This document shows, one piece after another, positions 9,903-30,224 of a DNA stretch of 32,000 bases. Origin of the DNA: Candidatus Jordarchaeales archaeon (GTDB taxonomy: Archaea; Asgardarchaeota; Jordiarchaeia; Jordiarchaeales; Freyrarchaeaceae). The stretch covers positions 180,001 to 212,000 of the forward strand of contig JAWAHN010000001.1 in assembly GCA_038889235.1 (NCBI GenBank), read 5' to 3'. Position 1 is the stretch's first letter; every line of letters begins with the position of its first letter. The translations under genes and the position numbers were made by a program. The notes below the pieces were generated by a model, which saw nothing but the letters and a program-made list of their open reading frames with translations, had not been told where the DNA came from and made no database searches.

Positions 9903-10811
9903 TCAGCCTGATCTTTTCCTTATGAAGTCGCTTAGCCTCTCCTTTATTTCGACGAGCCCCACCTCGTTTATCTCCATAACATAGGTGTTCGTGTCGTGCC
10001 CGGACATGCGGCACCCATCTATCCTTATTGTTCTCAGCACGCTTCCTAGAGGAAGGCCATAGAGACCGGCGTCGAACTTGGTCTCCATAAGCTTCTTGTC
10101 CATTACTATCGTTCCGTCAACTATGTGGGCTACTGCCAGTCCACCGGCAGCTTCAGCCGTCTCGGACCCCTGGGACGAGCGCTTCTGGGATACTATAATG
10201 GACGTCAAATGAAACCTTTTAAGGGAGTTGTACACTATGCGGACTATCTGGCGGGCCATGACCTCCCTGTGCTCGTAAAGCCCTGTTATACTGTCTATGA
10301 CCACCACGTCAACTCTCCGTGACTTGACAGCGTACTCCATAGTTTTAACCAGCGCAGAGGTGTTTTCCCTAAGCATGGGTTCCTGCGAGACGTCTATGAC
10401 TGAGATGTTTCTCTCTACGTTCCCAAAATTAAGGTCTAATGCAACCGCCTTCTGCTTAAGAGACGTGTAGAGGAATTCTGCAGGGTTCTCGGTGGTCACG
10501 AAAAGAACCCGACTACCCCTCCCAGCTTGGAAGACGGCGAACTGCTCGGCGAAGACACTCTTCCCCGTGTCGGGTATACCAACTAGGTTCATCACAGCTC
10601 CCTTAGGTATACCACCTAGGGGCTTCCTCACAAGTCTACCAGAAACTTCATCATAATAGACGGTGAAGAAAAGATCGTCAAGCTTCGTCCCCGTCGGAAC
10701 GCCCACTATCTCCGGCGCTTTACCCTTAAGACGAGGAAGTTCGACAATATAACGGGAGTAGTCTATTTCGGGCTCGCTCCTAGCGGCCCTAGCGGCATAT
10801 CCTTCCTCCAA
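9903..10811 (-). CDS. Single-domain KaiC/RecA-superfamily ATPase, AF_0795-like
   Basis: GVPTG..LDDLF...GGIP, Walker A GIPDTGKS, Walker B VVVIDSITG, SQKR and AAGGLAVAHIVDG motifs. Confidence 0.88.
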   Translation of the reverse strand: MEEGYAARAARSEPEIDYSRYIVELPRLKGKAPEIVGVPTGTKLDDLFFTVYYDEVSGRLVRKPLGGIPKGAVMNLVGIPDTGKSVFAEQFAVFQAGRGSRVLFVTTENPAEFLYTSLKQKAVALDLNFGNVERNISVIDVSQEPMLRENTSALVKTMEYAVKSRRVDVVVIDSITGLYEHREVMARQIVRIVYNSLKRFHLTSIIVSQKRSSQGSETAEAAGGLAVAHIVDGTIVMDKKLMETKFDAGLYGLPLGSVLRTIRIDGCRMSGHDTNTYVMEINEVGLVEIKERLSDFIRKRSG

Positions 10812-13067: not shown

Positions 13068-13239
13068 GCATCACACCTCTAGTTGATTGAGCAAACGACA
13101 ATAGGACAAAGGAGTTATTTAAAAAATTACCTAAAGGTGGTGTTATGTTCCCGCGCTATTCAGCATCTTTTCAATCCTGCCAAGGGTAGTGTCGGAAAAC
13201 TTTTACTCTTATTTCTCCAATTTTTCTACTTGGCGTAAG

Positions 13240-13470
13240 ATGAAAATAGTTAAGGTTAGCGGCGAAAACACATAGAAGACTCTGCGAGAGGGCTGGGAGA
13301 TTCCAAGCAGAGCTGAAGATGCCTGTGTCCATCGGTGAAACCATATGTCACTTGCCCGACGAAGCGAGAAAGCGCGGGGTAGCCGAACTTGCGGGGAGCT
13401 GGAGCTTTCGGATGAAGAGGCTGAGGAGATTTTCCTCGGCTCCGAAGGTGGTAGAGTAGTTGGAACGTGA
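13240..13470 (+). pseudogene. vapB: Decayed VapB-like antitoxin
   Basis: Two single-base corrections give MKIVKVSGETHRRLCERAGRFQAELKMPVSIGETICHL...VAELAGSW(E)LSDEEAEEIF. Its stop overlaps the PIN-gene start (GTGA). Confidence 0.6.
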
Positions 13471-13864
13471 AAATGTCTGCTTAGACTCAGATGTGCTCAT
13501 AGACCATCTAGGGGGTAAAAGCATGGTGGTTGACGAGGTACACAGGCTTAAGGAGAAGTGTATCCTATCGACAACATCGATAAACGTTTTTTGAAGTTTT
13601 ATGGCTCTTATAAGAGCGGAAGAAGGTTGATGTCGAGAGCGTTGCGAGACTCGTGGAAAAAAACTCACAGTGCTCAACTTCGACAGGGCTGCTGAGACAG
13701 CTAACAGATTCTAGTTCAATTAGAGTCTAAGGGGAGAGGTCGTGGAGTTTAGAGATGTGCTTTTAGGGGGAACGTGCCTACTGAACGGGTGTGCTATAGC
13801 AACATGGAACACTAAACACTTCAAGAGAGCTCATGAGTTAAAGGTCATTGAGCTACAGTGCTGA
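13467..13864 (+). pseudogene. vapC: Decayed PIN-domain VapC toxin
   Basis: Fragments across frames: CLDSDVLIDHLGG, LSTTSINVF(E), YGSYKS, LTVLNFD, EFRDVLLGGTCLLNGCAIATWNTKHF. This is the canonical PIN order with acidic active-site residues, plus several frameshifts and stops. Confidence 0.8.
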
Positions 13865-13976
13865 CTCGTAAACCTCAAAAGGCGGTTTCGCCTTCTAAAC
13901 CTGGAGTGTTTCGGTCGCCTATCGTTCTCGAAAGCAATATTTTGAAAGCTTAAGGTAAATAAACTGGGGGAAGTCC

Positions 13977-15683
13977 TTGTCATCCGAGGTTCTTCGTGAA
14001 AAAGTTTTGGAGGTAATTAACACTGTTGAGAGTCATGGGCTCTTCGTTCACGACGAACTGTTGACTGTTAGATGTGAGGGGGAGCATGGAAACGAGATGT
14101 GGAGCATGCCACTCGTCGTCACGCTAGCTGTCCTAAACGCATTAGTCCCTAGGGGGGCTATGCTGCTTTACGGTGGACACGGTGGAGGTAAGACTACTCT
14201 GGCGAAAGTGCTGGGGCGCATGATGACCGGCGCCCACCTTTCAGAGATAGAGGAGGCTGTGGTGCGTGGGCACCCCCAGCTCACAGAGGAGAAAATGATA
14301 GCCACTCTTAAACCTGGGCGGCTTCTCAGAGATGGCGTGGAGGAGGTTGTATGGCGGAAGTTTGTCACAAGCTTTTGGAAAATAGTGGACGAAATTAACA
14401 GGCTTACACCCTATACTCAAAACATTCTCCTATCTCTCCTCGCTGAAGGCAGAGTGAAGTTTTACGACGCTGTTTACGAGTGCGGCTCCTTCGTCCTCTA
14501 CGCCACAATGAACCCACAGGACCCTGGAACCTTCGAAATTGGGCTTCCGCTGCTGGACAGGTTCGGGATAGCTGTACCCATAACCATGCCCAGCGTTACG
14601 GAGATCCCATTCATCCTCTCGGGCCAAGATGAAAGGCTTTACGGCTACGACCCCTACTACCAAGTCCCCCAAGTGCTAAGCGTGGAGGAGTTGCGCTCAA
14701 TATGGCGGCTTGTCGACGCCACGCCGGTGGATGAGGAGGCGAAGCTCTTCGTGGGCAACCTGATATCAGAATTTTCGGCTTGCGAGAGGGCTTCGAAAGA
14801 AAACGTCACGCTCCTCAGAACGGATAGCGGACTATGCGACGGATGCCACTTCAACGTCGAAAAATCGGTTTGCAACAAGGTTGTGACGCCACTCAGCGTG
14901 AGGGCGGCTAAGGACATTTTAAGGTATTCTAAGGCGTTGTCCTGGCTCCTCGGAGCTGAAAAGGTGACCGTGGATATGGTCGTTGCTATAGCTCCCTATG
15001 CCGTTTGGCATAGGGTTAAGTATCCTGAAAGACTCCTCATGGAACCCCCCTACTACGGGGACCAGCTCAAGTTTACCTTCGACGTTATGAAGCTCGTAAT
15101 GGAGAGGTTTGTAGCGAGGAGGAAAGCTCTAGAAATATTTGAGAAGTTTAAGATGGGAGAGGGGGGTGAGGGGGCGCTGAAAAACCTTGAAGAGTGGGGG
15201 AGGAGCGACCTAGTGGTGAAAACAGAGTTAGTGCCAAAAGCGCGCCACTTCGCCACCAGGGAGTATAGGAGCGTGATGGAGAAGATAAGGAAAGCACTTA
15301 GGGTTGACAACGTAAGAGAGCTCGAGAAGGTAAGGAATGTTATACTCTCAGAGAGAGGGTTGCCGAACAGGTTTGAAATCCTACGCAAGCTCGAAGAGGC
15401 AATTCACGAGAAGACAAAGAAGATCTACATGGTGCCGTTTAGAGAGTGGGGGGCGGTGTACGGAAAGCTTGCTGTAAAGTTCCCAGAGCTACAAGAGCCC
15501 CTTAAGCAAACGTTCAAACCGCCCGTGTCAAAGTGCATTAAACACAGGGAGCTTACCATAATAGTCCACGCAACCGGGGGAAGCGACGAGGACCCGGTGT
15601 TCGTGGAAATTGCAGGGGGTAAAGCGGACGAGGTGGCTAAAATCGTGGAGGAGGTTTGCGGAAGTGACAAGAAAGAGGAATAA
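13977..15683 (+). CDS. MoxR-type AAA+ ATPase with a Cys4 insertion and C-terminal extension (568 aa)
   Basis: Walker A GGHGGGKT, Walker B IVDEINR, ATMNP, LLDRF, SVRA. Contains a C-x17-C-x2-C-x8-C cluster. Confidence 0.88.
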   Translation: MSSEVLREKVLEVINTVESHGLFVHDELLTVRCEGEHGNEMWSMPLVVTLAVLNALVPRGAMLLYGGHGGGKTTLAKVLGRMMTGAHLSEIEEAVVRGHPQLTEEKMIATLKPGRLLRDGVEEVVWRKFVTSFWKIVDEINRLTPYTQNILLSLLAEGRVKFYDAVYECGSFVLYATMNPQDPGTFEIGLPLLDRFGIAVPITMPSVTEIPFILSGQDERLYGYDPYYQVPQVLSVEELRSIWRLVDATPVDEEAKLFVGNLISEFSACERASKENVTLLRTDSGLCDGCHFNVEKSVCNKVVTPLSVRAAKDILRYSKALSWLLGAEKVTVDMVVAIAPYAVWHRVKYPERLLMEPPYYGDQLKFTFDVMKLVMERFVARRKALEIFEKFKMGEGGEGALKNLEEWGRSDLVVKTELVPKARHFATREYRSVMEKIRKALRVDNVRELEKVRNVILSERGLPNRFEILRKLEEAIHEKTKKIYMVPFREWGAVYGKLAVKFPELQEPLKQTFKPPVSKCIKHRELTIIVHATGGSDEDPVFVEIAGGKADEVAKIVEEVCGSDKKEE

Positions 15684-17289
15684 TAAACACATTGCCTCGC
15701 TTGTCAAGGAGGCGGTTTCGCTTGCCCTTAAAGACTTCTACTGCCCCCCGGTCCCAGACCCGGAGGTCAGCGTTGGAAAAGCTAGGAAAACCATGTTCTA
15801 CATTACTGAGGGGAGCTGGAAAGTGCACATAAACGTCAACGAAATCCCACCACTGGAAGAGAGAGAGCTTGTAAAATTCTTCCGGTCCATATGCAGACAC
15901 GAGTTGGGACATTACACTGTATGCCCTTACGATATGACAAATTCCTTGCTTATCCTTAGAAGCGTGATGAAGAATGTCGGGCCAGAACTAGCAGGCTTCG
16001 TCGCCAACTTTTTCTGCGACCTTATCGTCGACCACTACCTCTTTGAAAGATACCGCGAGGAAACACTCTGGGAGAAGAAGGTTACAGCTAACTGGATTGC
16101 CAACTGCTTTGACTATCCAAGCGAGCTGTGGGCTTTACTCATTAAATGCTACGAGAAAATGTGGAACGTGAAAATCCTAGAAGATTTAAGAGTAGCGATG
16201 GTTGTGGATGAAGTTGCAGCAAAGATAGTTAAGGTGATCAAGAGGGGTGGGGTGTTCAACGAGAAGACATGGCCCAGGAAGGCTGGCAAGGTTGCCGAGA
16301 TAATAAGGAACTTCTTGGAATGGGTTCGTAGGGGAGAGGAAGCCAGTTACGACGGATTCACAGTCCCAGAGGATGTCGCGAAGATGATGAGAGGAGACCC
16401 GTTGAAACCACCGCTCGGAAGGAGCGGAGACTATGAGAAAGCAGCGGAGAAGTACATTGAGGAAGGCGGAAGAGTTGAAGAATTTGTCGAAACAATTAGG
16501 GCGGCTGGGCTTAACAAAAACACAAGGGAGATTTTGAGGGCGTGGTATAGGGCTAAGGCGAAATTGAGAATTAAGGTTAAAATCTCCTCGGTGAGGAGGA
16601 GAAAGGAGGATGTGCAAGTTTACCCTGACGTTTGGAGAATTGAAGACCCGTTAGAGGAGCTTGACATACCGCTCTCGCTTCAGTGCTTCCCTAAACTTAT
16701 ACCCGGCCTGACGACTAAGAAGTGGGTCAAGAGTTCAAGTGAAACTGTCAAAGAAAAAGGGGAACCCCCGGACATGTTGATAGTCCTCGACAGTTCCTCC
16801 AGCATGAGCTCTAACGATGGGTTGCCCTTTGACCTAGCTCTCGTAGCAGCCTTCTCGGCTCTTAAGTTTGCGATGAGCAAAAACTGCAGAGTTGCAGCCA
16901 TCAATTTCTCCAATGGAGTGATAGAGTGTTACTGGACCAGGGATAGAGTTAAGGTTGAAGACGTCCTCTTAAGCTACCAGGGGGGCGGCACTGTTCTCCC
17001 CACGAAAAGAATATCGAAACTCGTAGAGGAGAACGGATTCAAAGTCCTGGTGCTAATAATAACTGACACTGGGTTGGCGAACTGGGACGAGGCTGTGAAG
17101 GAGCTTGGAAGGCTCGTAGCCATGGGGCACAGCGTGTGCATGTTCTTTATAGGAGGACGTGAAGGTGAGCTCAACGAGGCGCACAGGAAGTTTCTCTCCA
17201 TGGGTGGGAAGATATATCCCATCCCGGACATTGAGAAGCTACCAGATGTGGTGATAGATGAGGTTAAAGGGCACTACCAGGTAGGGTGA
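15664..17289 (+). CDS. HExxH metallopeptidase-like N-domain plus C-terminal vWA domain protein
   Basis: RHELGHY motif. MIDAS elements DSSSS, GGGT and ITD. GTG 15664 follows a GGAGGAGGT RBS (the ORF track starts at 15610). Confidence 0.85.
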   Translation: MTRKRNNKHIASLVKEAVSLALKDFYCPPVPDPEVSVGKARKTMFYITEGSWKVHINVNEIPPLEERELVKFFRSICRHELGHYTVCPYDMTNSLLILRSVMKNVGPELAGFVANFFCDLIVDHYLFERYREETLWEKKVTANWIANCFDYPSELWALLIKCYEKMWNVKILEDLRVAMVVDEVAAKIVKVIKRGGVFNEKTWPRKAGKVAEIIRNFLEWVRRGEEASYDGFTVPEDVAKMMRGDPLKPPLGRSGDYEKAAEKYIEEGGRVEEFVETIRAAGLNKNTREILRAWYRAKAKLRIKVKISSVRRRKEDVQVYPDVWRIEDPLEELDIPLSLQCFPKLIPGLTTKKWVKSSSETVKEKGEPPDMLIVLDSSSSMSSNDGLPFDLALVAAFSALKFAMSKNCRVAAINFSNGVIECYWTRDRVKVEDVLLSYQGGGTVLPTKRISKLVEENGFKVLVLIITDTGLANWDEAVKELGRLVAMGHSVCMFFIGGREGELNEAHRKFLSMGGKIYPIPDIEKLPDVVIDEVKGHYQVG

Positions 17290-18116
17290 AACGCTTGAGC
17301 ACGTGGAATGACAAGGTTTCCAAGGCGGCTTTCGCGTGCTGTAGGAAAAGCATGGAGACGCTGAGGGTAATCCTTCACGCCTGGCTTAAGAGAGGCACGC
17401 TGAGAGAGAAGGGGGTTCAGCCTATTAGTAGGGTAGTTGTCGTCGCCGAGGAAGGGATGATGGCTGAGGAGGCCGTCAAGGAGCTCCTAAAAGAGACTGG
17501 GGTCAATTTCAGGAAGGTGGAGGGGGAAGGAGGAGTTAGCATGGTGGTCGACGGTGGCGGTGAGGAGTTCACCGTAGAAGTAGTGAGGTGTGAGAGGGAT
17601 CAGAGCGCGCGTGACGGGCTTACTTTGGTCGTTGAAAGACCGGGGGTTGCTGACAGGATGGAGGCTTTGAGGGTTTTGGCGTCAGAGCTTGGCGATCTCG
17701 ACTTGAAGAGTGTAGCGGAGGCTTGTGAGGGCTTCACGACGTCAGACATTGTGAAACTCGTCCAGTTTGCAGCTTCGAGAAGCATAGCTGAGGGGCGGGA
17801 GAAAGTTGAGGGGGGTGACTTTATGGAGGGAGTATCCGCTCTGCGAAGGGAGGCAAGTGTTCTAGGTGAGACGCTTCCCGACGACCTATCAGAGCAGCTC
17901 TACATTATGGCGGTCAGTGAGAGCGGCGAGGTTTTCTCGGAGCTCGTCCACAAAGTCAACTCTGGGGAGAGGCTCGACAGGAGACTTGAGAAGGCGCTTG
18001 CAAGGTACTCCTTCATCTTGTTCGACGAGCCCGAGGAGAGGATAATAAAGCTTGCAAGGGCTAGGGCGAGCTACGAAAGGCTCAGAAAGGTCTTTGAGGG
18101 TGGGCGGCAGAATTGA
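17286..18116 (+). CDS. Degenerate AAA+-like protein: AAA lid present, no Walker A/B
   Basis: DLDLKSVAEACEGFTTSDIVKLVQFAASRSIAEGREKV...DF resembles the small helical lid of classical AAA ATPases (PAN/Cdc48/FtsH type). It has 4-nt overlaps with both neighbours. Confidence 0.65.
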   Translation: MKRLSTWNDKVSKAAFACCRKSMETLRVILHAWLKRGTLREKGVQPISRVVVVAEEGMMAEEAVKELLKETGVNFRKVEGEGGVSMVVDGGGEEFTVEVVRCERDQSARDGLTLVVERPGVADRMEALRVLASELGDLDLKSVAEACEGFTTSDIVKLVQFAASRSIAEGREKVEGGDFMEGVSALRREASVLGETLPDDLSEQLYIMAVSESGEVFSELVHKVNSGERLDRRLEKALARYSFILFDEPEERIIKLARARASYERLRKVFEGGRQN

Positions 18117-21100
18117 ACGGCTTCAAACTCACTTCACTACAACTGAAAAATTTTCTCACATACAGTGAAGAATATCTGAGACTCCCAAAGGAGGGCTTGA
18201 TAGTCATCATAGGCGGAAATGGAACAGGCAAGACCAGCCTATTCAACGCCCTGCGGTTCGTCCTCGGCTCTAATCAGAAAGATCAAAGGTACCGCTCATG
18301 GAGCGACTTCATAAACAACCGTGTGAACGCCGCGTACGGTTGGGTTGAAGCCGTCTTTGAGGGAAACGGAGAGACTATTAAGCTGAGGAGAGAGGTGAGG
18401 CGCGGGGAGGCACCGAGATCATACGTCAACGGGAGAAGGGTAAGCGCGGACGAGTTGAGAAAAGTTGTCCGCGAAAAGCTTGGGATAGACCCAGATAACC
18501 CCCTGGTCTTCGTGCCTCAGGGACGTGTAGATGCGATTAGAGACATGGAGACGGAGAAGCTGAGAGCTTTCATAGAGGAGCTGACTGGTCTCGCAGAGAA
18601 CAGAAGGATTATCGATGAAAAGGAGAGGGAACTTGAAGTGGTACGAAGGGAGGCGGAGAAGCTTAGGGAGGATATTTTAACCTTTCAGGAGAGAGAGGCA
18701 AGGCTGGCTCTGAAGTTTGAAAAGTGGAAGAAGAGGAGGGAGGTGGAGGAGCGGCTTAAGGCGCTTGAGAGCGAGGCCGTATGGAGCAGGATGGCCGAGT
18801 GGGAGGCTAAACTAAAGGAGCTGGCGGAGGCTGAAAGGAGGGCGGCAACATCTGTTGAGGAGAAGTACGCAGCTTTCAAGAAGGTTGCTGGGGAAGTAGA
18901 AGAGCTGGAGAGGGAGTTGGGTGCTAAGAGGGCAAAGGAGGCGGAGATTGATGCTGAGGTTAACAGGCTTAGGGAGGAGAGGATGAACCTTGAAGCTAGA
19001 TTAAGGGGTGTGTTGGGAGGGCGGGATAAGACGCTGGAGAATTTGAGGAGGAAAGAGGAAGAGCTGGAAAGGATTAAGGGAGACGTCGAGGCTCTGAGGA
19101 GGAGAGTGAAGTGGCTTGAGGAAAGAGAGAAAAAACTTGAGGACGACAGGCAGAAAGTGCTGTCAAAAATCGAAGAGTTAAGGAAAGAGCTAGAGAGGAT
19201 TTCCGTTGAGAAGGAGAAGTTTAGGGGGTGGGAGGCTGAGTGGAGAGCTGCTAAGGCCGAGCTGGAGAGGGTGAAGGAGAAAATTGAGGTGCTGAATAAG
19301 GAGAAGGCTCGGGTTGGCTCTGAGCTGGAGAGAGTGGGAAGGAGGATTCTGGAGTGTAACAGGAGGGTGGCGGAGCTCGTTAGCATAGTGGAGAATTACG
19401 ATGAAGATGGGTTGAAGAAGAGGAGAGAGGAGCTGAGGTCGGAAAGGGAGAGGCTTGTAAGGGCGAGTATACGTGTTGAGGATGAAGTCAAGAAGTACGA
19501 TGAGAAGATTAACGCGCTCAGAAAAATGCTTTTAAACGTTGGTAGCAGGGTGCCGGAGCAAGTCGAAATGCTGGAGAGAGATGTGAAAAACAGGAGGATG
19601 GAGGTGGAAGGCCCCCTCCTTAAGCTGATCGAGGTGGATGACAAGTATGCTAAGGCCACCGAGGCGATTTTCGGGAGAGAGCTGCTGGCATTCGTGGCGT
19701 TCGACGAACCCGACTTCCAGGTTTTGAACGAACTTAGAAAAAAGTATAACGCCTGGTGCACCATATACCTTCCGAAAACCCTTGAAGCACCCGCTCTGGG
19801 AAGGATAGAAGACGAAGGGGTTATTGGCTGGCTCGAGGATGTGCTGAAGTTCCCTGAAAGGGTCAGGGTGATTATAAGGGAAATAACCCGAAGGACTTTG
19901 TTAGTTAAAGACTTTAAGAGCGCGCTTGCGCTCAGCAGGAAGTATAAGGGGTTGAGGTTTGTTACAGTTGACGGCGAGGTAGTGGAGGACTTCGAAAACG
20001 TCTTGCGAAGCCCCCACAGGAAAATTAAGGGACTCCTGGACGTTAAGAGAATCACGGAAGAACTGGAGGAGAGCGTTATCGCTAGGGGACGGTTGGAGGA
20101 GGAGCTTAAATCCTTGAAGGAAAAGTTGGACGAGTTGAGGAGGGAGGAGGAGCGGGTTGAAAGAGCGCTCACAGTTATCCCGGAGTGGAGGATGCTTCTA
20201 AGGGAGAAGATGACGCTCGAAGAGGAGGAGAAGAAGCTGAAAGATGAGTTGAGGATGATTGAAGAGAATTTGGCGAGTATTTCAGCGGACAGGGAGAGAG
20301 CGGAAAGGACTCTAAGAAAGGTTGAGGAGAGGAAGCCTAAGGATTACACTGAGCTCGAGAAGGCTGAGATGGAGGCACTAAGAGAGCTCGAAGGGACGAG
20401 GAGAGAGCTTGACAGGTTGGAGGCTGAGCTGAGAAAAGTGATGAAGGAGAGGGAGGGGGCGCTGCTAAATATGAAGATGCTCGAAGCAACCGGCGAGTCT
20501 GTTTCAAAGGAAATCGACCTACTAAGGGAGGAGGTAGTGAGGGGGAGCGAGGAAGCTGAAGAGCTGACTAGAAAGATAGATGAGCTTAAAATAGTGGTTG
20601 AAGAGTGGCTGGCCCGTAAGAGGGACTATGAAAGGTCTATTGAAGTGCTGCTCCAAAAGCTGGGGGAGAGAAGGGAAAGAATGAAAGTGTTGGAGGAGAC
20701 ACTTGGAGAAGGGAGGAAGGAGCTGGAGAGTATTAAGAAAGAGATTTCCGCCGCGAAGGAGAGACTGAAGGAGCTGGAAAGGGAGGTGAGGGAGAGAGGG
20801 TTTGTGAAGCCTGCTAGGGTTAGGTCGCTCCCCGAGATCGAAGTGGAACGCACGCTCCTCGAGGAGGAACTTGCAAGCTTAGCAGACGTGGATGAAGGTG
20901 TCGTGAAAGAGAAGGAGGAGTTGGAGAGGGAGAGAGGATATCTCACTGAGAGATTTGAGAAGGTTAGAGAGGAACTGCAGGGAATTTTGGAGGAGTTAGA
21001 GAGAAGAAAGGAAGAGCACATGGTTAAACTGGTTGAGGCTGTCGATGAAGTTGAGAGGGAGGTTAACGAGCTGCTTGGGAGCGTCAACATGAGGTGCAAG

Positions 21101-21466
21101 TTAAGGGTTGCGGGAGGGTACAGTGAAGCTGGAGTGGAGGTTAAGTTGAGCGTAAAGGGTGGACCTTTAGTCAACGTTACAGCTGCAAGCGGAGGGGAAA
21201 GGTGTTTTTTCGCCATAGCGCTCATGGCGGCACTACAGAAGAAGGCGCGTACACCTCTCGTAGTACTAGACGAGCCGTCGATGCACCTTGACTCTGAAAA
21301 CACCGAGAGGACTGGAAAGATACTCAAGGAGATTTCTTCGGGGAGACAGCTGCTTGTCTTAGTTCCCGACAAGTACTTAGAGTTTACGAAGTATGCTGAC
21401 CAGTGCTACGGGACCGCCACTAGCAGCGGGGTTAGCGTAGTGATACCCGCCCGAATAAAGTGCTGA
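18113..21466 (+). CDS. smc: SMC-family ATPase with Smc5/6-like motifs (1117 aa)
   Basis: Walker A GGNGTGKT, Q-loop FVPQG, two long coiled coils around a central hinge (EGPLLKLIEVD...VTVDG), signature SGGE and Walker B LDEP..HLD. Confidence 0.92.
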   Translation: MNGFKLTSLQLKNFLTYSEEYLRLPKEGLIVIIGGNGTGKTSLFNALRFVLGSNQKDQRYRSWSDFINNRVNAAYGWVEAVFEGNGETIKLRREVRRGEAPRSYVNGRRVSADELRKVVREKLGIDPDNPLVFVPQGRVDAIRDMETEKLRAFIEELTGLAENRRIIDEKERELEVVRREAEKLREDILTFQEREARLALKFEKWKKRREVEERLKALESEAVWSRMAEWEAKLKELAEAERRAATSVEEKYAAFKKVAGEVEELERELGAKRAKEAEIDAEVNRLREERMNLEARLRGVLGGRDKTLENLRRKEEELERIKGDVEALRRRVKWLEEREKKLEDDRQKVLSKIEELRKELERISVEKEKFRGWEAEWRAAKAELERVKEKIEVLNKEKARVGSELERVGRRILECNRRVAELVSIVENYDEDGLKKRREELRSERERLVRASIRVEDEVKKYDEKINALRKMLLNVGSRVPEQVEMLERDVKNRRMEVEGPLLKLIEVDDKYAKATEAIFGRELLAFVAFDEPDFQVLNELRKKYNAWCTIYLPKTLEAPALGRIEDEGVIGWLEDVLKFPERVRVIIREITRRTLLVKDFKSALALSRKYKGLRFVTVDGEVVEDFENVLRSPHRKIKGLLDVKRITEELEESVIARGRLEEELKSLKEKLDELRREEERVERALTVIPEWRMLLREKMTLEEEEKKLKDELRMIEENLASISADRERAERTLRKVEERKPKDYTELEKAEMEALRELEGTRRELDRLEAELRKVMKEREGALLNMKMLEATGESVSKEIDLLREEVVRGSEEAEELTRKIDELKIVVEEWLARKRDYERSIEVLLQKLGERRERMKVLEETLGEGRKELESIKKEISAAKERLKELEREVRERGFVKPARVRSLPEIEVERTLLEEELASLADVDEGVVKEKEELERERGYLTERFEKVREELQGILEELERRKEEHMVKLVEAVDEVEREVNELLGSVNMRCKLRVAGGYSEAGVEVKLSVKGGPLVNVTAASGGERCFFAIALMAALQKKARTPLVVLDEPSMHLDSENTERTGKILKEISSGRQLLVLVPDKYLEFTKYADQCYGTATSSGVSVVIPARIKC

Positions 21467-21467
21467 G

Positions 21468-22040
21468 GTGGGTGGCGTGATAGACGAGGTACTGGCGATG
21501 GTTGAGACTGGAAAGGTTAACCCAGCCGACGTCGACTTGAAAGCCCTCCTAGTGGAAGTTAGGGAGGCTAGGAGTGGAGTCGAGTGGGGGGAGAAGATTT
21601 CAAAGTTAATACGGCTGGCTAGGCTTAAAGTTAGGGCACTGATTGAAAGTGTGATCTTACGGTTTGGGAAGCCGCCAGGTTTCGGCGTCACCTCCCCGCT
21701 GGTAATTCCGTGGATTGGTTTTAGTGAGGCTGAGAGGGCGCTTAGAGAGCTGGTGGAAGCTATGTCTAAGAGAATGGCTGCGAAGGGTGGTGACGAGACC
21801 TCACCAGCACTGCTCGTAGATAAGGAGACCGTTGAACTACATGTGGCTGAGGAGAGAAAGTACAGGGAATACGTGCAGGGTAAAATTAGAGAGCTGGGAG
21901 AGGCGAGATTGGAGGACTTGCTTGAAGGCGACATCTTAGAAAGGGCTTCCATCTTTGTAGAGGTTTTGAGGCTGATAAGCGAGGGGGTTTTAGGGTATGA
22001 CAAGTTGAGCGGGAGGGTTTTTGCGCTTGAACGAGTATGA
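21468..22040 (+). CDS. scpA: ScpA-like kleisin (short, 190 aa)
   Basis: N-terminal helical pattern (VETGKVNPADVDL...LIRLARLKVRAL) and C-terminal wHTH (ERASIFVEVLRLISEG.L). Directly follows smc. Confidence 0.7.
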   Translation: MGGVIDEVLAMVETGKVNPADVDLKALLVEVREARSGVEWGEKISKLIRLARLKVRALIESVILRFGKPPGFGVTSPLVIPWIGFSEAERALRELVEAMSKRMAAKGGDETSPALLVDKETVELHVAEERKYREYVQGKIRELGEARLEDLLEGDILERASIFVEVLRLISEGVLGYDKLSGRVFALERV

Positions 22041-22479
22041 AGTAGTGTTTGCTAGTATGGTTGCCAGTGGTTGGAGAGGGGTTAGCGTTAGGGATGTTGC
22101 AAGGGTCCTAGGAGTGGAGGGGGAGTTGGGAGAGTGGTATGCGATAAGGACTTTAGTGGGTATGGCAAAGATTTTAAGGCCTCTGGGTGTAGTCTTGAAG
22201 TTTAATCCTGTGACTGGGATGTGGGTTGCAACGCAAAGTAGTAAAACAGCTAAGGCTGCTGGGCTCCCGAAAAGGTTGAAGGCAACCCTCGCCGCCGTGC
22301 TTAGAGTTCAAAGCGAGCTTGGAGTTGCATCCATAGAAGAGGTTGTGAAGGTTAGGGGGAAGAGCAGGAGAAGCACTCTGGCAGATCTTAGGGAGCTTGA
22401 AGAAAAAGGGCTTGTTGAGCGTGTAGGAAAAAACGAGTTTAGGGTGTCAGGGGTGCTTGCCCCCTTCCTGGAGGGGTGA
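22021..22479 (+). CDS. scpB: ScpB-like KITE (tandem winged-helix) protein
   Basis: Two wHTH-like halves; the second (LKATLAAV...IEEVVKVRG...LRELEEKGLV) follows the ScpB pattern. Overlaps the kleisin stop. Confidence 0.7.
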   Translation: MRLNEYEVVFASMVASGWRGVSVRDVARVLGVEGELGEWYAIRTLVGMAKILRPLGVVLKFNPVTGMWVATQSSKTAKAAGLPKRLKATLAAVLRVQSELGVASIEEVVKVRGKSRRSTLADLRELEEKGLVERVGKNEFRVSGVLAPFLEG

Positions 22480-22487
22480 GCGCTGGT

Positions 22488-25400
22488 TCATAGCTTCCTA
22501 GCTTTCGCCGTTACATCTTGTAGGACCACGTTAAGCGCCTTTATTAGTTCCATGTTTGTCGTGTATATCCCGACGGGTTGGGGGGCTGCGACCGCCAAAG
22601 CCATCTCTTCGTTGTCCCTGTTTATAATGTAGAGGTTTGTCGGGTAGTGTCTGATTTGTACGTTGGGTGGGAGACCTGCGGGCGGAACACCTTTAACGTC
22701 GGTGACTATTATGGCTCTTTGCCTCGTGAGTTGCTTTACAGTGTCGAGTGGAACGTCGTCTATCGATGGGACCACCATGGTTATGGTGCTCTTGGTGTTT
22801 AGTAGGAGCGCCTTTATGAGTAGGTCCATGTGGGGTTTTCCCGCTATTCTACCGGTGTCCTCGAAGGGTTGAGGCTCTATTTCTTCGGCGAGCCTTGCTA
22901 CCGCGGATATTGTCTCGAGAGAGCGTGAAACGAGGTTCAGCCCTTTGTCGACGAATTCGGCGATCCGTGCTCCGCTTTCCTTAACAAGCGACGAGGACGA
23001 CCTCGCAGAGGAGGACAAGAGCTCATTGACCGAGGACTCAGCAGCTGAAACACTGCCCCGCCACTCTTCTAAGCTCTCTCCGAGTATCTTTGAAATCCTC
23101 TGCTCCGCTTCACTCGCTGTCGCGTCAAGCTCTTTGGAGACTGCTTCAACATGCTGCCTAACGCTTTGAAGGGACTGGAAGAGGCTTGTTTTAAGCGTTG
23201 CATGCCGCTTTTCGAGAGACGCGTGGAGGGAGCGCTGGAAGTCAGCAAGCTTGTCCTTGAGCACTGAGGAGGGCTTCTCCACAATGCTCGAAAGCCCTCT
23301 TACCTTCACTTCTATGACGTCGCGAATTTCCGCCGCGTAGCTGTCAATTGTCGAAAGCAAGTCGTACTTCACCTTTCCAGTGTACGACGCTAGGTCCCTT
23401 GAGACGGTAGCCGCCACCTCTTCGAGCCCCTTTAGAACCTTACCCTTCACCTCTTCCAGTGAGGCTACGCCTTCGCCCAGCAGCCTGCCAGCCTCCTCCC
23501 TGAACTCGGCTACGAATCCCGTCAGCTTTGAAAGGCCTTCCTTCAGCTCATCAGTAAGCCGGCGTTCCAGCTCATCTCTTATCATCGATATCTCCTTCAC
23601 TGAGAAGGAGACTTCTTCCTCAAGTGACGATGCAAACTTGTTAAGCTCCTTGCTTGTTCGCGATGCCACGTCAACTGCTACTTCGCTGAGCTTCGACCTA
23701 ATTTTTTCAGTTTCTTTCTCAGCAGCCTTAGGCAGGTTTGAACCAAGGGATGCAATAGCCTCCTTAAGCTTCGCCACTGATTCTCCAAGTTCGCTGTCAA
23801 CTTTACCTATCAACTGGTTGACGCTTGCCGAGGTTTCTCTGAGGGATGATGTGGCTTCATCAACAGCTTTCTTTAATTCATCTACCTTAGAGCTCATGGA
23901 CTCCTTTACCTTACCCGCCTGCTCCACCCAGGAGTTAGCCAACTCTCTCGTTCTCGCCGACATTGACTGGAACAAGCCCTTAACATTTTCTTCGGCGTTT
24001 GACAGGCTGCGGGCGACGCTCTCCCTAGCACTTGTAAGGGACTTTGCGGCTTTTAACCTTGAGGATTCCAGGTTCTCTTTTATGCTTGAAGCTGTGGACG
24101 AAAGCTTAGACTCTGCCTGCGACGAGGCCTCCTCAAGCATGGAGGACAGCTCTGATAGGAGTCTGTCGGCGGCCGCGCTAGTTTTTGAGCTTAGCGACGC
24201 TGCAAGTTCCGCCACCTTTTTCTCTAGTGATGAAGACAACTCCCCAACTAGTACGTTCACTTGCATTAGCGCCGCTTTCCCCTTTTCTGCGGCTTCATTA
24301 ACCTGTGAGGTAAACGAGTCCACAACGTTCCTAGTCGAAGAGAGAAGACCCCTCAACGTTGAGAGACTTTCGGTGTAGGACTTACCCAGCTGTAACCACG
24401 CCTCCTCGGCTTCAGCTTCCATTGTAGAGGAGTGCGCGGCCACCTCCTTCTCGGCTTCAGCTATCTTGGAACTTATTTTCGTTGATGAACGTGCTGTGGA
24501 TTCCCTTACCGAGCTGGCTTCGGCGGCGGCTTTTTCTAAGAGTGCAAGCATAGCGCTCTTAGCAGAGTTGATTGAGGTTATGGCTTTTTCTGCTTCGTGC
24601 GAGCTTATGGCGTTAAAGCGCTCTTTGAAGTCGTTGAAGAGCGCGTCCACCCGGCTGCGGAGGTCGCCCAGTTGTTTCGAGGTGAGCGTGTTGTACATTG
24701 AGGTGGCATCCCTCAGCTTTGAGGTTAACGCTCTGAATGATTCGTTTAGGGAGCTTGCCGCACCACTGACTAGGGATAGGGCGCCCTCCATGGCGACCCC
24801 GATGTTTCCAGTCATTCTGTTATAGTTGTCAACAATTGTCGACGATAAAGAGTCAACTGTAGCGTTCACCTGCAAGCACGCTTTCTCGAAGCTGGACGAG
24901 GCAGACGAGAGAGTTTCAGCGACTTTCTCAGCGTAGCTCTCAACTTCCCTTCTAATGTTGCTTCCCATGTTCGTAATGGATGCGCGGGCTTTCTCCACAG
25001 TTTTTCCTAACGCTTCCCCAACTTGTGACAATGTCTCAGCTGACAGCGAAGATATTCTCTGCTTTGTGGACTCGTCCTCGCTTTCTATGGATGCAAGCAA
25101 GCTTAACGTTCCCTTCTCAATTCGCTCTCCTAGGTACGTTATCACCTTGTCCACTTCGTCTATAAGCGAGGAGGCTATGGATTCAACTCTTTTCCTCTGG
25201 TCCTCGATAGCGTCTTCAAGTTCAGACCTTAGGCTCAGAACAGCGTCTCTTTGCCCTTTCAACGTGCTTAAGAGGGAGAGGAGTTCATCCTTACCAAGCT
25301 TCTTCTTGCCCTCAGCAACCTCTTCTATCGTTTTTATCACGTCAAGCACCTTGCTGACAACTGCTCTAGCTTTCTCCCCGACCGACGCCAAGCTGCTCCT

Positions 25401-27908
25401 TTGGAAGGCTATGCTGTCACTGAACCTGGCGGACACGTCATCTTTGAGTCTAGCCAGCTCGGAGGATACTGCTTCAGAGAAGGACTTCAAGCTCACATCA
25501 AGCTTTTTCCTTCTCTCGTCGAGCACCTTTGAAAGACCCGACACGAGGCGGTCCAAAAAGTCTTCAACTAGTTTAGCTGTCTCTCTGCCTTCTTTCTCAA
25601 ACGCGGATGAGAGCTCTTCTTCCGCCTTCTTGCAACTTTCAGCAAGTAGGGATGTGGATTCCTTCACATGGCGTGACGTGGAGCTCAGGGAGGAGGAAAC
25701 CTCTTTGGCCACAGCGTCTATTTTGCCTTTCGCATCCCCCGCGAACCTGCCAGCCAGTTCCCCGAACTCTTTTGCAGTCGATTCCACTTCTTTCAGCGTG
25801 TCTTCCTTCGCTTTTCTGACTTTTTCCAGTGTGCCCTTTACAGCGTCCTCGGCTTCTGTTTCAGCCTCATTGGCTGCACTCAACACCACCTTCAAGTATT
25901 CTTCAAGTGCGCTCAACAAGTTCTTTTCGAGCTTTTCAAGGTCAGACTTAACCGACGATGATACGGATTCGGAATAGCTCTTCAGTGATTCGGTTATGGA
26001 AGCGATTAATGCCATCGATGATGACGCAATGTTTTCCGCAGCTGCGGATGCTTCTTTTGATACAGCTTCAATGAGCGCTGCGCAGTTTTCCCCAGCATCG
26101 TTGATAGCCTTCGACGCCAACGCCGCCACACTTTCGAGAACGTTTTTTAACCTACTTTGGAAGGAAGACGACAACCTTTTTACTTCAGACAGGAACTTCT
26201 CCCTAATGGATGAGGCAAGCTTCTCATACTCGCCTAAAGTCGATTCAATAGATGAGACTTCTTCTAGAAGGGAGCTGGAAGAGGCTGAAAAGGAGTTCTG
26301 GAGCCCGGATAGTGAGGTTGAGGCTTTGTCTGCCAGCTCTGCGGCTTTTCCCCTGAGTGACGCAATCTCTTCCGATGCCGAACTGGTAAAAGAGCCACCC
26401 CCCTCTCTGATGGAGGCTACCAGTGACTCTAATTGTTTTTCCGCGCTGCTTCGGAAGCCGCTCAGTGCGCCCCTAACTGTTAGGGAGACAGACGAGAGAG
26501 CGTCTTTGACCAGTTCTTCGGCTAATTTGAGGGCTGACTCTACGTCCGCTTCTGCTCCTGCAACCATGCTTGATATGGTAGAGTTGCACTCACGAAGCAC
26601 CGAACCCGTGGACTTGGCAGCTTCTTCAAGCGACCCCTGCAACGAATTCGCAGCTTCCTGAACTATGCTTACTGCGTTGTCTATTGATGAAGTAGCTTTT
26701 TCAGCCTCGCTCTTCAACGCGCCGCGCAACTCTGTAAGCCTTCCCGAGGCGCTCTCAGCAACATCTGTCAGAGCGCGTGAAAGCTCGGAGCTCACAGACC
26801 TTAACGACGACGCCATGGACTCGACTTGCTCTTGTACTAGGACCTTGAGCCCTTCAGTCTCTCTTATCAGGGACGCGTATGCCTCATTCACTGTTTCAAC
26901 CATCTCATCTGCCGTTGAGAGTATGCTCTCCCTAGCGTCCTCTGATGCCCCTTGACATAACTCTGAAAGACGCGTCGAGAGACGGCCTTTTATTTCTGAG
27001 AGCCGGTTTATGGGTGCCGCCAGCGACTTAGCTAGCTTAGCTGACGTTTCCTCAAGTTCGGACTCAATTTTTCTCAGGGCTTCATCTGATATGCTTGATA
27101 GGCTTCCCTTAAGCGTCTCAGCAAACCTTTCTATTCTAGCTATGGATGCTTCAAGTTCGGGTGAAACTCTTACAAGAAGGTCTCTCGATCTTTCCTCCAT
27201 GCTTCGCAGTGCAGAGTTGACGGATTCTTCTACTCGTTCCCTAAACTTTGAGACCGATGAGCGCGTTTCTTCCATAAAATCTGACAAAAGCTTTTCAATT
27301 GAGTCCTTCAACGCAAGGAGGGATGATGTAAAATCTTCTACGGCTGCTGTGACACTCTCCACTACTTTGCTGGCTGCCAAGAGAGAGTGCTCCTCGTGCG
27401 TTTTCACCGCTTTATCTATGGCTTCATTTATGCTTCGTGCTTCACCTAGAATCTTCACCCTTGGCTCCTCTACGAAAGCCCTGATTTTGCCCACGGTTTT
27501 CTCTTGCACCGAGCTGAGCTTCTTCTCAAGTAGTTCAAGGCTTGCCTCGACGGTCGAGCGGAAGCGGGCGGAGTGCTCCTCCGCCTTCTTGAGTATTTCC
27601 TCGGCGGTCTTAGTGCTCTCGCGTAGAAGACCCTCTTTTAACTCTAAGAGGGATTTCTTCAGCTCATCCACAGTTTTACCGGTGAGGGTTATTCGCGGCG
27701 TTAGGGCAATGTACTGGTCGACTTTTCCGGCTATCTTTTTCACGAGGCCGGCTAACTGGAGGGCGGCGAGCTCCCTTTCAACTTCCTCCAGTGGAAGTCC
27801 TGTGTAGACGGATAGCTCGGCTGCCGTCTTAGCCCCGAACCCTACACATGCCGCGTAAATCTTCATTCTCGCTCCTTCGAGCCCGACCTCTTTTAAAACC
27901 TCCTCCAA
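22488..27908 (-). CDS. Giant protein (1806 aa): TrmB-like wHTH, about 1600 aa of Ser/Ala-rich helical repeats, TrmB/PLD-like C-terminal domain
   Basis: N-terminus LKEVGL....KIY......KTAAELSVYTGL....V...L..L...GLV. C-terminus TKSTITMVVP...VQIRHY...LYIINRDNEEMAL (degenerate PLD-like fold). TTG start after GGGTGA. Confidence 0.85.
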   Translation of the reverse strand: MEEVLKEVGLEGARMKIYAACVGFGAKTAAELSVYTGLPLEEVERELAALQLAGLVKKIAGKVDQYIALTPRITLTGKTVDELKKSLLELKEGLLRESTKTAEEILKKAEEHSARFRSTVEASLELLEKKLSSVQEKTVGKIRAFVEEPRVKILGEARSINEAIDKAVKTHEEHSLLAASKVVESVTAAVEDFTSSLLALKDSIEKLLSDFMEETRSSVSKFRERVEESVNSALRSMEERSRDLLVRVSPELEASIARIERFAETLKGSLSSISDEALRKIESELEETSAKLAKSLAAPINRLSEIKGRLSTRLSELCQGASEDARESILSTADEMVETVNEAYASLIRETEGLKVLVQEQVESMASSLRSVSSELSRALTDVAESASGRLTELRGALKSEAEKATSSIDNAVSIVQEAANSLQGSLEEAAKSTGSVLRECNSTISSMVAGAEADVESALKLAEELVKDALSSVSLTVRGALSGFRSSAEKQLESLVASIREGGGSFTSSASEEIASLRGKAAELADKASTSLSGLQNSFSASSSSLLEEVSSIESTLGEYEKLASSIREKFLSEVKRLSSSFQSRLKNVLESVAALASKAINDAGENCAALIEAVSKEASAAAENIASSSMALIASITESLKSYSESVSSSVKSDLEKLEKNLLSALEEYLKVVLSAANEAETEAEDAVKGTLEKVRKAKEDTLKEVESTAKEFGELAGRFAGDAKGKIDAVAKEVSSSLSSTSRHVKESTSLLAESCKKAEEELSSAFEKEGRETAKLVEDFLDRLVSGLSKVLDERRKKLDVSLKSFSEAVSSELARLKDDVSARFSDSIAFQRSSLASVGEKARAVVSKVLDVIKTIEEVAEGKKKLGKDELLSLLSTLKGQRDAVLSLRSELEDAIEDQRKRVESIASSLIDEVDKVITYLGERIEKGTLSLLASIESEDESTKQRISSLSAETLSQVGEALGKTVEKARASITNMGSNIRREVESYAEKVAETLSSASSSFEKACLQVNATVDSLSSTIVDNYNRMTGNIGVAMEGALSLVSGAASSLNESFRALTSKLRDATSMYNTLTSKQLGDLRSRVDALFNDFKERFNAISSHEAEKAITSINSAKSAMLALLEKAAAEASSVRESTARSSTKISSKIAEAEKEVAAHSSTMEAEAEEAWLQLGKSYTESLSTLRGLLSSTRNVVDSFTSQVNEAAEKGKAALMQVNVLVGELSSSLEKKVAELAASLSSKTSAAADRLLSELSSMLEEASSQAESKLSSTASSIKENLESSRLKAAKSLTSARESVARSLSNAEENVKGLFQSMSARTRELANSWVEQAGKVKESMSSKVDELKKAVDEATSSLRETSASVNQLIGKVDSELGESVAKLKEAIASLGSNLPKAAEKETEKIRSKLSEVAVDVASRTSKELNKFASSLEEEVSFSVKEISMIRDELERRLTDELKEGLSKLTGFVAEFREEAGRLLGEGVASLEEVKGKVLKGLEEVAATVSRDLASYTGKVKYDLLSTIDSYAAEIRDVIEVKVRGLSSIVEKPSSVLKDKLADFQRSLHASLEKRHATLKTSLFQSLQSVRQHVEAVSKELDATASEAEQRISKILGESLEEWRGSVSAAESSVNELLSSSARSSSSLVKESGARIAEFVDKGLNLVSRSLETISAVARLAEEIEPQPFEDTGRIAGKPHMDLLIKALLLNTKSTITMVVPSIDDVPLDTVKQLTRQRAIIVTDVKGVPPAGLPPNVQIRHYPTNLYIINRDNEEMALAVAAPQPVGIYTTNMELIKALNVVLQDVTAKARKL

Positions 27909-27915
27909 ACATTCT

Positions 27916-30219: not shown

Positions 30220-30224
30220 TTCAA

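Follow-up and report, generated by a model that had tools for sequence, protein, structure and literature searches.

The stretch of DNA considered here (the window) comprises 32,000 nucleotides from a Jordarchaeales archaeon of the Asgard archaea (C1:180001-212000, in a genome of 2.14 Mb that is 95% complete), and contains a compact operon in which genes for a non-canonical structural maintenance of chromosomes (SMC) complex are joined to genes for two AAA+-type proteins and a VWA-domain protein. Numbered in the order in which they are read, genes 1 to 6 encode a MoxR-type ATPase, a protein in which a zincin-like HExxH domain is fused to a VWA domain, a pseudo-AAA+ protein, an SMC protein, a kleisin, and a candidate kite protein. 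The explanation that we favor, with a probability of roughly 55%, is that this is the operon of a second Asgard SMC complex, which would have a dedicated pseudo-AAA+ subunit and a remodelling machine composed of the MoxR ATPase and the zincin-VWA protein. The SMC-kleisin-kite core and pairs of MoxR and VWA proteins are both known; in the literature searched we did not find their conserved association described, nor the fusion of a zincin-like and a VWA domain in such a setting, nor the pseudo-AAA+ gene as a constant member. A functional link between the MoxR/zincin-VWA pair and SMC complexes is well supported by the sequence comparisons described below.

The six genes lie on the plus strand and span positions 13977-22479, and the open reading frame (ORF) listing shows that all of the junctions between them are either overlaps or a 1-nt gap, so that there is no space for internal promoters (Table 1). 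A GGAGG sequence is present 10 nt 5′ of the GTG codon at 15664, and the pseudo-AAA+ gene is, as far as the reading frames indicate, translationally coupled to smc. The identical six-gene order is found in a member of the same genus (57-76% identity), in a second genus of the same family, and in another family (34-55% identity), an arrangement that is far beyond what would be expected by chance. An earlier note on this DNA had described six chained genes that couple a MoxR/vWA module to an SMC set, and had identified the first four products as a MoxR ATPase, an HExxH-vWA protein, a Walker-less AAA-lid protein and an SMC; the coordinates and junctions agree with the ORF listing, the recurrence of the gene order in the congener, the second genus and the other family bears out the coupling, and the four identities agree with Pfam matches and sequence motifs. 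The note's remaining assignments fare unevenly, with the kleisin being supported and the KITE protein being consistent with the data described below.

Table 1. Coordinates of the operon features in the window
Feature	Position	Strand	Remarks
Candidate promoter and ribosome-binding site region of the operon	13930..13976	+	AT-rich stretches AATATTTT and GGTAAATAAA; GGGGGA run lying a few nt 5′ of the TTG start codon; read from the sequence and suggestive only
Gene 1, MoxR-type AAA+ ATPase, 568 aa	13977..15683	+	TTG start
Gene 2, zincin-like HExxH + VWA protein	15664..17289	+	GTG 15664 (or TTG 15610) start; 20-nt overlap with gene 1 from GTG 15664
Gene 3, pseudo-AAA+ protein, 276 aa	17286..18116	+	4-nt overlap with gene 2
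Gene 4, non-canonical SMC, 1117 aa	18113..21466	+	4-nt overlap with gene 3
Gene 5, kleisin, 190 aa	21468..22040	+	1-nt gap after gene 4; true start possibly a few codons later
Gene 6, kite candidate, 152 aa	22021..22479	+	20-nt overlap with gene 5

Gene 4 encodes an SMC protein in the strict sense, as judged from its Pfam domains (SMC_N at residues 6-1103, E = 9.4e-31; SMC_hinge at 498-607, 5.2e-14) and from the Walker A (GGNGTGKT), signature (SGGE) and Walker B (VLDEP) motifs, which are invariant in 11 orthologs. A canonical smc-scpA-scpB operon is located elsewhere in the genome at C1:621.5-626.2 kb, about 420 kb away, with the SMC gene at 621.5-625.0 kb and with partners that are recognizable by Pfam (ScpA, 29 bits; ScpB, 8.4e-35), and the window cluster therefore represents a second archaeal SMC complex. 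The canonical SMC and the gene 4 product are about 27% identical, and the two clades to which they belong are split in our tree with 100/100 support. When the C-terminal heads are aligned with those of canonical SMCs, the His of the H-loop is seen to be replaced by Pro in all of the paralogs, a substitution that is presumably an Smc5/6 trait and is the only such trait observed. A search of genome contigs with the SMC alignment profile recovered at least nine loci, eight of them from archaeal metagenome-assembled genomes (those with named titles being Asgard) and one a bacterial match of 44 residues.

In the Pfam scan neither gene 5 nor gene 6 matches SMC_ScpA or SMC_ScpB, nor any Pfam family above its cut-off. 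The assignment of gene 5 as a kleisin is supported by the alignment of its profile with that of canonical Asgard ScpA (hhalign 81%, E = 1.2e-5, over 103 columns of the C-terminal winged-helix region), by language-model features (SMC_ScpA accounts for 87 of the nearest 100 clusters, with a score of 0.92 and 190 shared features), and by its location between the SMC and kite genes in all loci. The C-terminal half of the gene 6 product has weak matches to winged-helix Pfam families (AbiEi_4 at 2e-5, TrmB and HTH_27), and three of 11 orthologs weakly match DUF4194 (best E = 0.0017), which is presumably the family of the Wadjet/Mks kite proteins JetB and MksE. Because the hhalign probability with ScpB is just 17%, homology of gene 6 to a known kite protein is not established; the gene is always the last of the core, and its sequence and position are only consistent with its being a kite candidate. 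Searches of PDB sequences with the kleisin and kite alignment profiles returned only chance-level or generic winged helix-turn-helix matches, those of the kite profile being to generic regulators of this type.

The product of gene 3 matches Pfam AAA_lid_3 (1.9e-7), and its predicted model (mean predicted local distance difference test score, pLDDT, 85.7) has Foldseek matches to proteasomal Rpt/PAN/FtsH chains at E ∼1e-5; the modelled fold is that of a classical-clade AAA+ protein (PAN/Rpt/FtsH-like). Both the GK[ST] of Walker A and the hhhhDE of Walker B are absent, for which reason we regard this protein as a pseudo-ATPase and not as an active classical AAA+ enzyme, and the motifs are degenerate in all 11 aligned orthologs, where G.(P/S)G(T/S)D and residues that are not acidic take their place. 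One distant member (P0036, L047:483-1607, GCA_054799095.1), which sits in the order VWA, pseudo-AAA, SMC, retains a Walker A motif (GPLGTGKS) together with a degenerate Walker B, and this suggests that some lineages of the family may bind nucleotide without hydrolyzing it. The most conserved part of the family is a C-terminal helical module (QLY..A.SE...KY.FIL...AKK), orthologs elsewhere are longer (339-454 aa), and about 35 full-length members are present at 50% clustering among 1.84 billion representative proteins.

In all of the loci examined (in families f1, f7, f8, f9, f28 and f33, together with eleven further loci from public assemblies or sequencing runs), the gene immediately 5′ of the SMC paralog is the pseudo-AAA+ gene, which usually overlaps it or lies within 20-90 nt; for distant members on short contigs the SMC gene is the only neighbor visible. 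A complex prediction, using alignments, of the SMC head halves (residues 1-215 and 905-1117) and the kleisin with the pseudo-AAA+ protein gave a score of 0.00 (mark 0.32), which is evidence neither for nor against binding. The gene comparisons support a partnership between the pseudo-AAA+ protein and the Smc5/6-like complex, and do so even more strongly than they support the tie with MoxR-VWA. We also note that in the second genus of the window's family (L022:10954-11792, G004) two ORFs of 116 and 172 aa take the place of a single pseudo-AAA+ gene, reflecting either a frameshift (and possibly a pseudogene) or an error in assembly.

Gene 1 is a MoxR AAA+ ATPase as judged from its intact motifs and the VWA gene beside it. 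It matches Pfam AAA_5 (8.8e-11, 42.4 bits with a cut-off of 22), AAA_3 (27.2 bits; cut-off 27) and AAA_lid_2 (23.0 bits; cut-off 22.7), and has intact Walker A (GGHGGGKT) and Walker B (KIVDE) motifs. Twelve aligned orthologs share the Walker A and B, sensor, and arginine-finger motifs, together with a Cys/His cluster (C...C-x-GCH...C) in the lid region, and the protein carries a C-terminal extension of about 220 aa. Orthologs with 42-76% identity are present in 209 of the 400 Asgard genomes surveyed, with identities of 42-50% across the phylum.

The gene 2 product is organized in two parts. Its C-terminal half contains a VWA domain in which the metal ion-dependent adhesion site (MIDAS; DSSSS...GGGT...ITD) is complete, and the columns of this site (D-S-S-G/S-S, GGGT and I-T/S-D) are conserved in 12 of 12 orthologs; the match to VWA_2 (8.9e-4, 20.3 bits) is under the Pfam cut-off of 27. 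The N-terminal domain is zincin-like, with an HELGH sequence lying within a conserved HExxHYxxCPYD block, and HExxH is kept in 10 of 12 aligned orthologs. Comparison of its predicted model (pLDDT 79.8) with 48,161 PDB representatives gives seven top structural matches that are all zincin peptidases (ZMPSTE24, Z = 6.3; Acel_2062, 6.2; selecase, 6.2; jannalysin, 6.1; Ste24, 5.9; BepA, 5.3; abylysin, 5.3), at Z scores (5.3-6.3) that are under the level deemed decisive for such comparisons. The best Foldseek match is selecase, although weakly so (E = 0.076), the AFDB cluster matches of gene 2 are VWA-domain proteins and M48 peptidases, and the Pfam scan has no peptidase match in gene 2. The modelled N-terminal domain therefore has a consistent zincin theme with scores that are not decisive. 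The resemblance to minigluzincins and M48 peptidases (selecase, jannalysin, abylysin, Ste24/ZMPSTE24 and BepA) lies around the HExxH helix and extends over 100-144 aligned residues, but the N-terminal domain is only 7-20% identical to them and, unlike them, is fused to a VWA domain.

The association of these genes extends well beyond the window. The four genes for the pseudo-AAA+, SMC, kleisin and kite proteins form a contiguous set in all of the more than 20 loci, which come from at least eight families and unnamed lineages, and in two Thorarchaeota-titled genomes there is about 2 kb between the kleisin and kite genes (L038/L039:14010-16010). Thirteen loci contain both the MoxR and the VWA gene, and in 12 of these the two are adjacent, the exception being L036 (G316, 13217-17261), in which they are about 4 kb apart. 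This pair is co-directional with the SMC paralog operon in f1, in f8 and in the L047 lineage, where the contig ends within the VWA gene. In f33 and in 48 genomes of the f7 group it is divergent from the paralog operon, the two starts being 145-770 bp apart; the divergent arrangement comes from a comparison of coordinates and was read directly in L024, L026, L036, L038 and L039. The two modules are 1.25 Mb apart in f28, and in f27 and f29 they are on different contigs of fragmented assemblies. The earlier note had called for a neighborhood survey, and had counted a usual lack of linkage between the MoxR-vWA genes and smc in relatives among the findings that would refute its proposal. We find this to be only partly the case, as all six genes are linked co-directionally in some lineages and the pair is divergent or unlinked in others: it is linked in f1, f8, f7, f33 and the L047 lineage, and unlinked in a Lokiarchaeia-type clade (f9 and f28, with f27 and f29 as far as their fragmented assemblies show).

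When 20 paralogs were placed in an IQ-TREE phylogeny with canonical SMCs as the root, all of the basal branches carried linked arrangements and the unlinked arrangements fell together in one nested clade (100/100 support), so that linkage was probably the ancestral state, with a single loss. Within the unlinked clade there is a different adjacency, since in f28 the MoxR-VWA pair is arranged tail-to-tail with the canonical smc-scpB operon in all five genomes that have both on one contig (G155, G152, G154, G160 and G150), the stop codons being 8 nt apart in one and 44 nt apart in the other of the two loci that were read (L030:9056-18501, G155; L031:3177-11181, G152). In one of these, the 6.0-Mb Lokiarchaeial genome G155, a 256-aa protein with a weak Prok-JAB match (1.1e-6) is encoded between the canonical smc and scpB genes (L030:13565-14338), where a kleisin would be expected.

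Co-occurrence across the 400 Asgard genomes also connects the two modules, with SMC paralog orthologs being present in 187 of them (Table 2). Both modules are present in approximately 10 families and both are absent from approximately 20, and there is no family with only the paralog. In f17 and f31 MoxR-VWA occurs on its own; these two families also lack the pseudo-AAA+ gene, and in both the VWA protein has lost HExxH. In f31 (L032:8053-12921, G304) and f17 (L033:2577-7248, G029) the start of the MoxR gene is overlapped by a preceding gene for a weakly related protein of 444-482 aa (BLASTP E = 1e-5), which is possibly an alternative client. Because detection in f9 is limited by genome completeness, co-occurrence within that family is uninformative.

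Table 2. Families with both modules: genomes with a MoxR ortholog (E ≤ 1e-30) and with the SMC paralog (E ≤ 1e-55)
Family	MoxR ortholog	SMC paralog
f1	2/4	2/4
f8	1/1	1/1
f27	1/1	1/1
f28	12/14	12/14, same genomes
f9	107/135	108/135
f29	3/4	3/4
f33	1/1	1/1
f7 group	68/89	58/89

The core of the operon has a published counterpart. SMC5/6-related archaeal SMCs were defined by Yoshinaga and Inagaki (2021; PMC8665677), and van Hooff et al. (bioRxiv 10.1101/2024.01.07.573240) described two SMC operons in archaea, one of them SMC5/6-related. The SMC5/6-related complex consists of a second SMC with its own kleisin and kite, encoded in one operon beside the canonical smc-scpAB in Asgard and TACK archaea (PMC8665677; bioRxiv 10.1101/2024.01.07.573240), and in P. 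syntrophicum genes 495-497 have the order SMC-kleisin-kite (bioRxiv 10.1101/2024.01.07.573240). Lokiarchaeial members of the clade described here share that order, and window genes 4-6 fit the published second operon by elimination and layout. With two complete SMC sets in the genome, a separate paralog clade, and the published layout, the cluster is, as far as sequence can say, a second operon of this type. It differs from the published three-subunit operon in that there is a constant fourth gene, encoding the pseudo-AAA+ protein, and a MoxR/zincin-VWA pair that is either linked or co-occurring. The main text of van Hooff et al. does not contain the terms AAA, MoxR or vWA and uses 'operon' for the three subunits only, and in its supplements AAA and ATPase appear solely in taxon names, references and unrelated tables. 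We found no description of an accessory module of pseudo-AAA, MoxR and zincin-VWA proteins tied to SMC in the literature searched, and the earlier note's suggestion of an undescribed system is thus appropriate for this module but not for the SMC-kleisin-kite core, which was already published (PMC8665677; bioRxiv 10.1101/2024.01.07.573240).

The relationship to Smc5/6 is less straightforward. The earlier note described the complex as Smc5/6-like, and the second SMC-kleisin-kite set indeed matches the published SMC5/6-related operon, but our own scores do not confirm this affinity. A profile of the paralogs compared with PDB sequences scores higher with Smc3 (229 bits) and Smc2 (221 bits) than with Smc5 (175 bits) or Smc6 (138 bits), a single-sequence search of PDB likewise either ranks Smc, Smc3 and Smc2 over Smc5/6 or does not find Smc5/6, and a search of PDB sequences with the C-terminal head fragment found no Smc5/6 chain. 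The Smc5/6 label is therefore that of the published phylogenies, with the profile scores presented here favoring Smc3/Smc2.

Upstream of the operon are genes for a KaiC-like ATPase (PF06745, 1.4e-48; 9903-10811, minus strand), a P-type ATPase, an acyl-CoA synthetase and an old yellow enzyme (OYE) flavin oxidoreductase, and this flank is housekeeping or metabolic in character and is not a defence island. On the 3′ side of the SMC operon is a convergent minus-strand operon (window positions 22488-31943) that encodes Ser/Glu/Ala-rich helical proteins of 1806 aa and 767 aa and a STAND NTPase. The STAND NTPase, which is about 8 kb downstream of the SMC operon and is the only protein of the convergent operon that was scanned, has an nSTAND1 match at 1.3e-8.

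Several other explanations for the cluster warrant consideration. A serious although unlikely one is that MoxR/zincin-VWA is an independent housekeeping chaperone acting on some other client, with its adjacency to smc being no more than inherited gene order and only the pseudo-AAA+ protein belonging to the SMC complex. The unlinked state of the pair in f9 (and in f27 and f29 with the reservation given above), its retention in f17 and f31 in the absence of the paralog, and a level of MoxR conservation across the phylum that would be expected of a general factor are all in keeping with this. However, gene order decays fast in archaea, and yet the adjacency has outlasted both the deepest splits among the paralogs and the inversion that separates the co-directional and divergent forms. 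The chaperone explanation is also difficult to reconcile with the independent second adjacency, to the canonical smc operon, in f28, with there being no family that has the paralog and lacks MoxR, and with the loss of HExxH exactly where the paralog is missing. That the cluster is a divergent ordinary condensin (Smc-ScpAB) is scarcely credible: while gene 4 has SMC_N and hinge domains, with SMC_prok_A (TIGR02169) as its best NCBIfam match, this match reaches 261 bits compared to an equivalog cut-off of 729, a better SMC is present with ScpA and ScpB in the canonical operon, and the low identity of the two SMCs and the split between their clades likewise exclude it.

The earlier note also raised the alternative of a defence system, and we have considered this as a nuclease-free, Wadjet- or Lamassu-like anti-plasmid or anti-virus system in which the SMC would be the sensor and a protease/AAA module the effector. 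An SMC-kleisin-kite set with accessory enzymes is the layout of Wadjet, the SMC has partial PADLOC matches (mad3, 1.2e-29; LmuB, 4e-28; JetC, 2e-9, with the JetC models at 30-34 bits), eukaryotic Smc5/6 is generally known to restrict extrachromosomal DNA, and a STAND NTPase lies downstream. Wadjet (JetABCD) and MksBEFG likewise combine an SMC-family ATPase, a kleisin, a kite and an extra enzyme in one operon; the operon described here, in contrast, is without the JetD/MksG Toprim nuclease, its extra enzymes are AAA+ and VWA/zincin proteins, its SMC has a true SMC hinge and is not MukB-like, and its inheritance is vertical. We consider a defence role improbable, as there is no gene for JetD/Toprim or another nuclease in or beside the operon, the MoxR, VWA, pseudo-AAA and kleisin proteins (four of the six) are without a PADLOC match, and the upstream flank is metabolic. 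The genes are moreover single-copy, with identities that fall with taxonomic distance (57% in the same genus, 44% in the same family, 34% and ∼25% further away), and they are found in most genomes of whole families and are not patchy.

The interpretation that we favor, a second SMC complex with its own pseudo-AAA+ subunit and remodelling machine, also has points that weigh against it. In f9, the largest family sampled, there is no linkage of the MoxR-VWA pair with the paralog operon, from which it is separated by 95 kb in a closed genome, and its neighbors are unrelated genes (HAD hydrolase, peroxiredoxin, radical SAM and PAC2). The presence of MoxR-VWA in f17 and f31 without the paralog means that the pair can serve another client, and the client is ambiguous in any case because the f28 pair adjoins the canonical operon and not the paralog. 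Related genomes are not independent, so that the co-occurrence rests on few evolutionary events. The kite identity and the affinity to Smc5/6 are not established by the present tests, and the zincin assignment draws on a motif together with middling structural scores for the model (Z ∼6, Foldseek E = 0.076).

If the interpretation of a second SMC complex with a dedicated remodelling machine is nonetheless adopted, the following mechanism can be envisaged. An SMC homodimer would be closed by the kleisin, which would carry a kite dimer, and the fourth dedicated subunit would be a classical AAA+ protein that lacks catalytic activity and whose synthesis keeps pace with that of the SMC. A MoxR hexamer and its zincin-VWA adaptor would form a remodelling machine dedicated to SMC complexes, in which the VWA MIDAS would grip an acidic residue of one of the subunits (by analogy with CbbQ-CbbO, NorQ-NorD and RavA-ViaA), MoxR would then use ATP to pull on the gripped subunit, and the HExxH domain could clip it. 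The outcome could be assembly, gate opening, unloading or turnover of the SMC complex. We infer the physical meeting of the seven or so polypeptides, the client subunit, and the activity of the zincin. A more specific version, which we offer as speculation and consider doubtful, is that the pseudo-AAA+ protein, as a stoichiometric subunit, provides the docking site for MoxR/zincin-VWA on the Smc5/6-like ring, and that the machine opens or cleaves the kleisin in an ATP-dependent manner; it would then be a counterpart of separase- or Wapl-type release that is non-homologous and pre-eukaryotic, and in Lokiarchaeia it may serve both SMC complexes.

MoxR-VWA pairs are often encoded in the operon of the complex that is their client. 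In CbbQ-CbbO, NorQ-NorD, RavA-ViaA and CoxD-CoxE (to which the BchI-BchD Mg-chelatase is related) there is also a gene for an AAA_5/AAA_3-type ATPase beside a gene for a VWA protein with a full MIDAS; the MoxR described here differs in its length of about 570 aa, its Cys/His cluster and its long C-terminal extension, and its VWA partner differs in having an N-terminal zincin-like HExxH domain. In the literature searched we found no SMC complex as a neighbor or client of any MoxR system. Separase (which cleaves Scc1), Wapl-Pds5 release, Cdc48/p97 with Wss1/SPRTN, and the Nse5/6 loader provide a conceptual parallel only, in that an ATPase, a protease or both act to open, remove or process a ring closed by a kleisin. 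They are not homologous: separase belongs to the caspase-like cysteine proteases, and Wapl, Pds5 and Nse5/6 have solenoid structures. Cdc48 is a classical AAA+ protein, but an active one with a double ring, whereas the classical AAA+ member here is dead and the active ATPase is of the MoxR type.

Eukaryotes depend on elaborate regulators (Scc2/4, Wapl-Pds5, separase and Nse5/6) to load, open and remove SMC rings, and we know of no prokaryotic forerunners of these; how such steps take place is a central question. The closest relatives of eukaryotes are the Asgard archaea, in which the likely ancestor of Smc5/6 is found. As the MoxR/VWA linkage recurs across Asgard lineages, the archaeal Smc5/6 relative may have a protein-remodelling machine of its own, and a chromosome-associated client would join the short list of known MoxR substrates. 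The pseudo-AAA, MoxR and VWA genes are concrete, clonable candidates for an archaeal SMC regulator, making this a question that can be tested in vitro.

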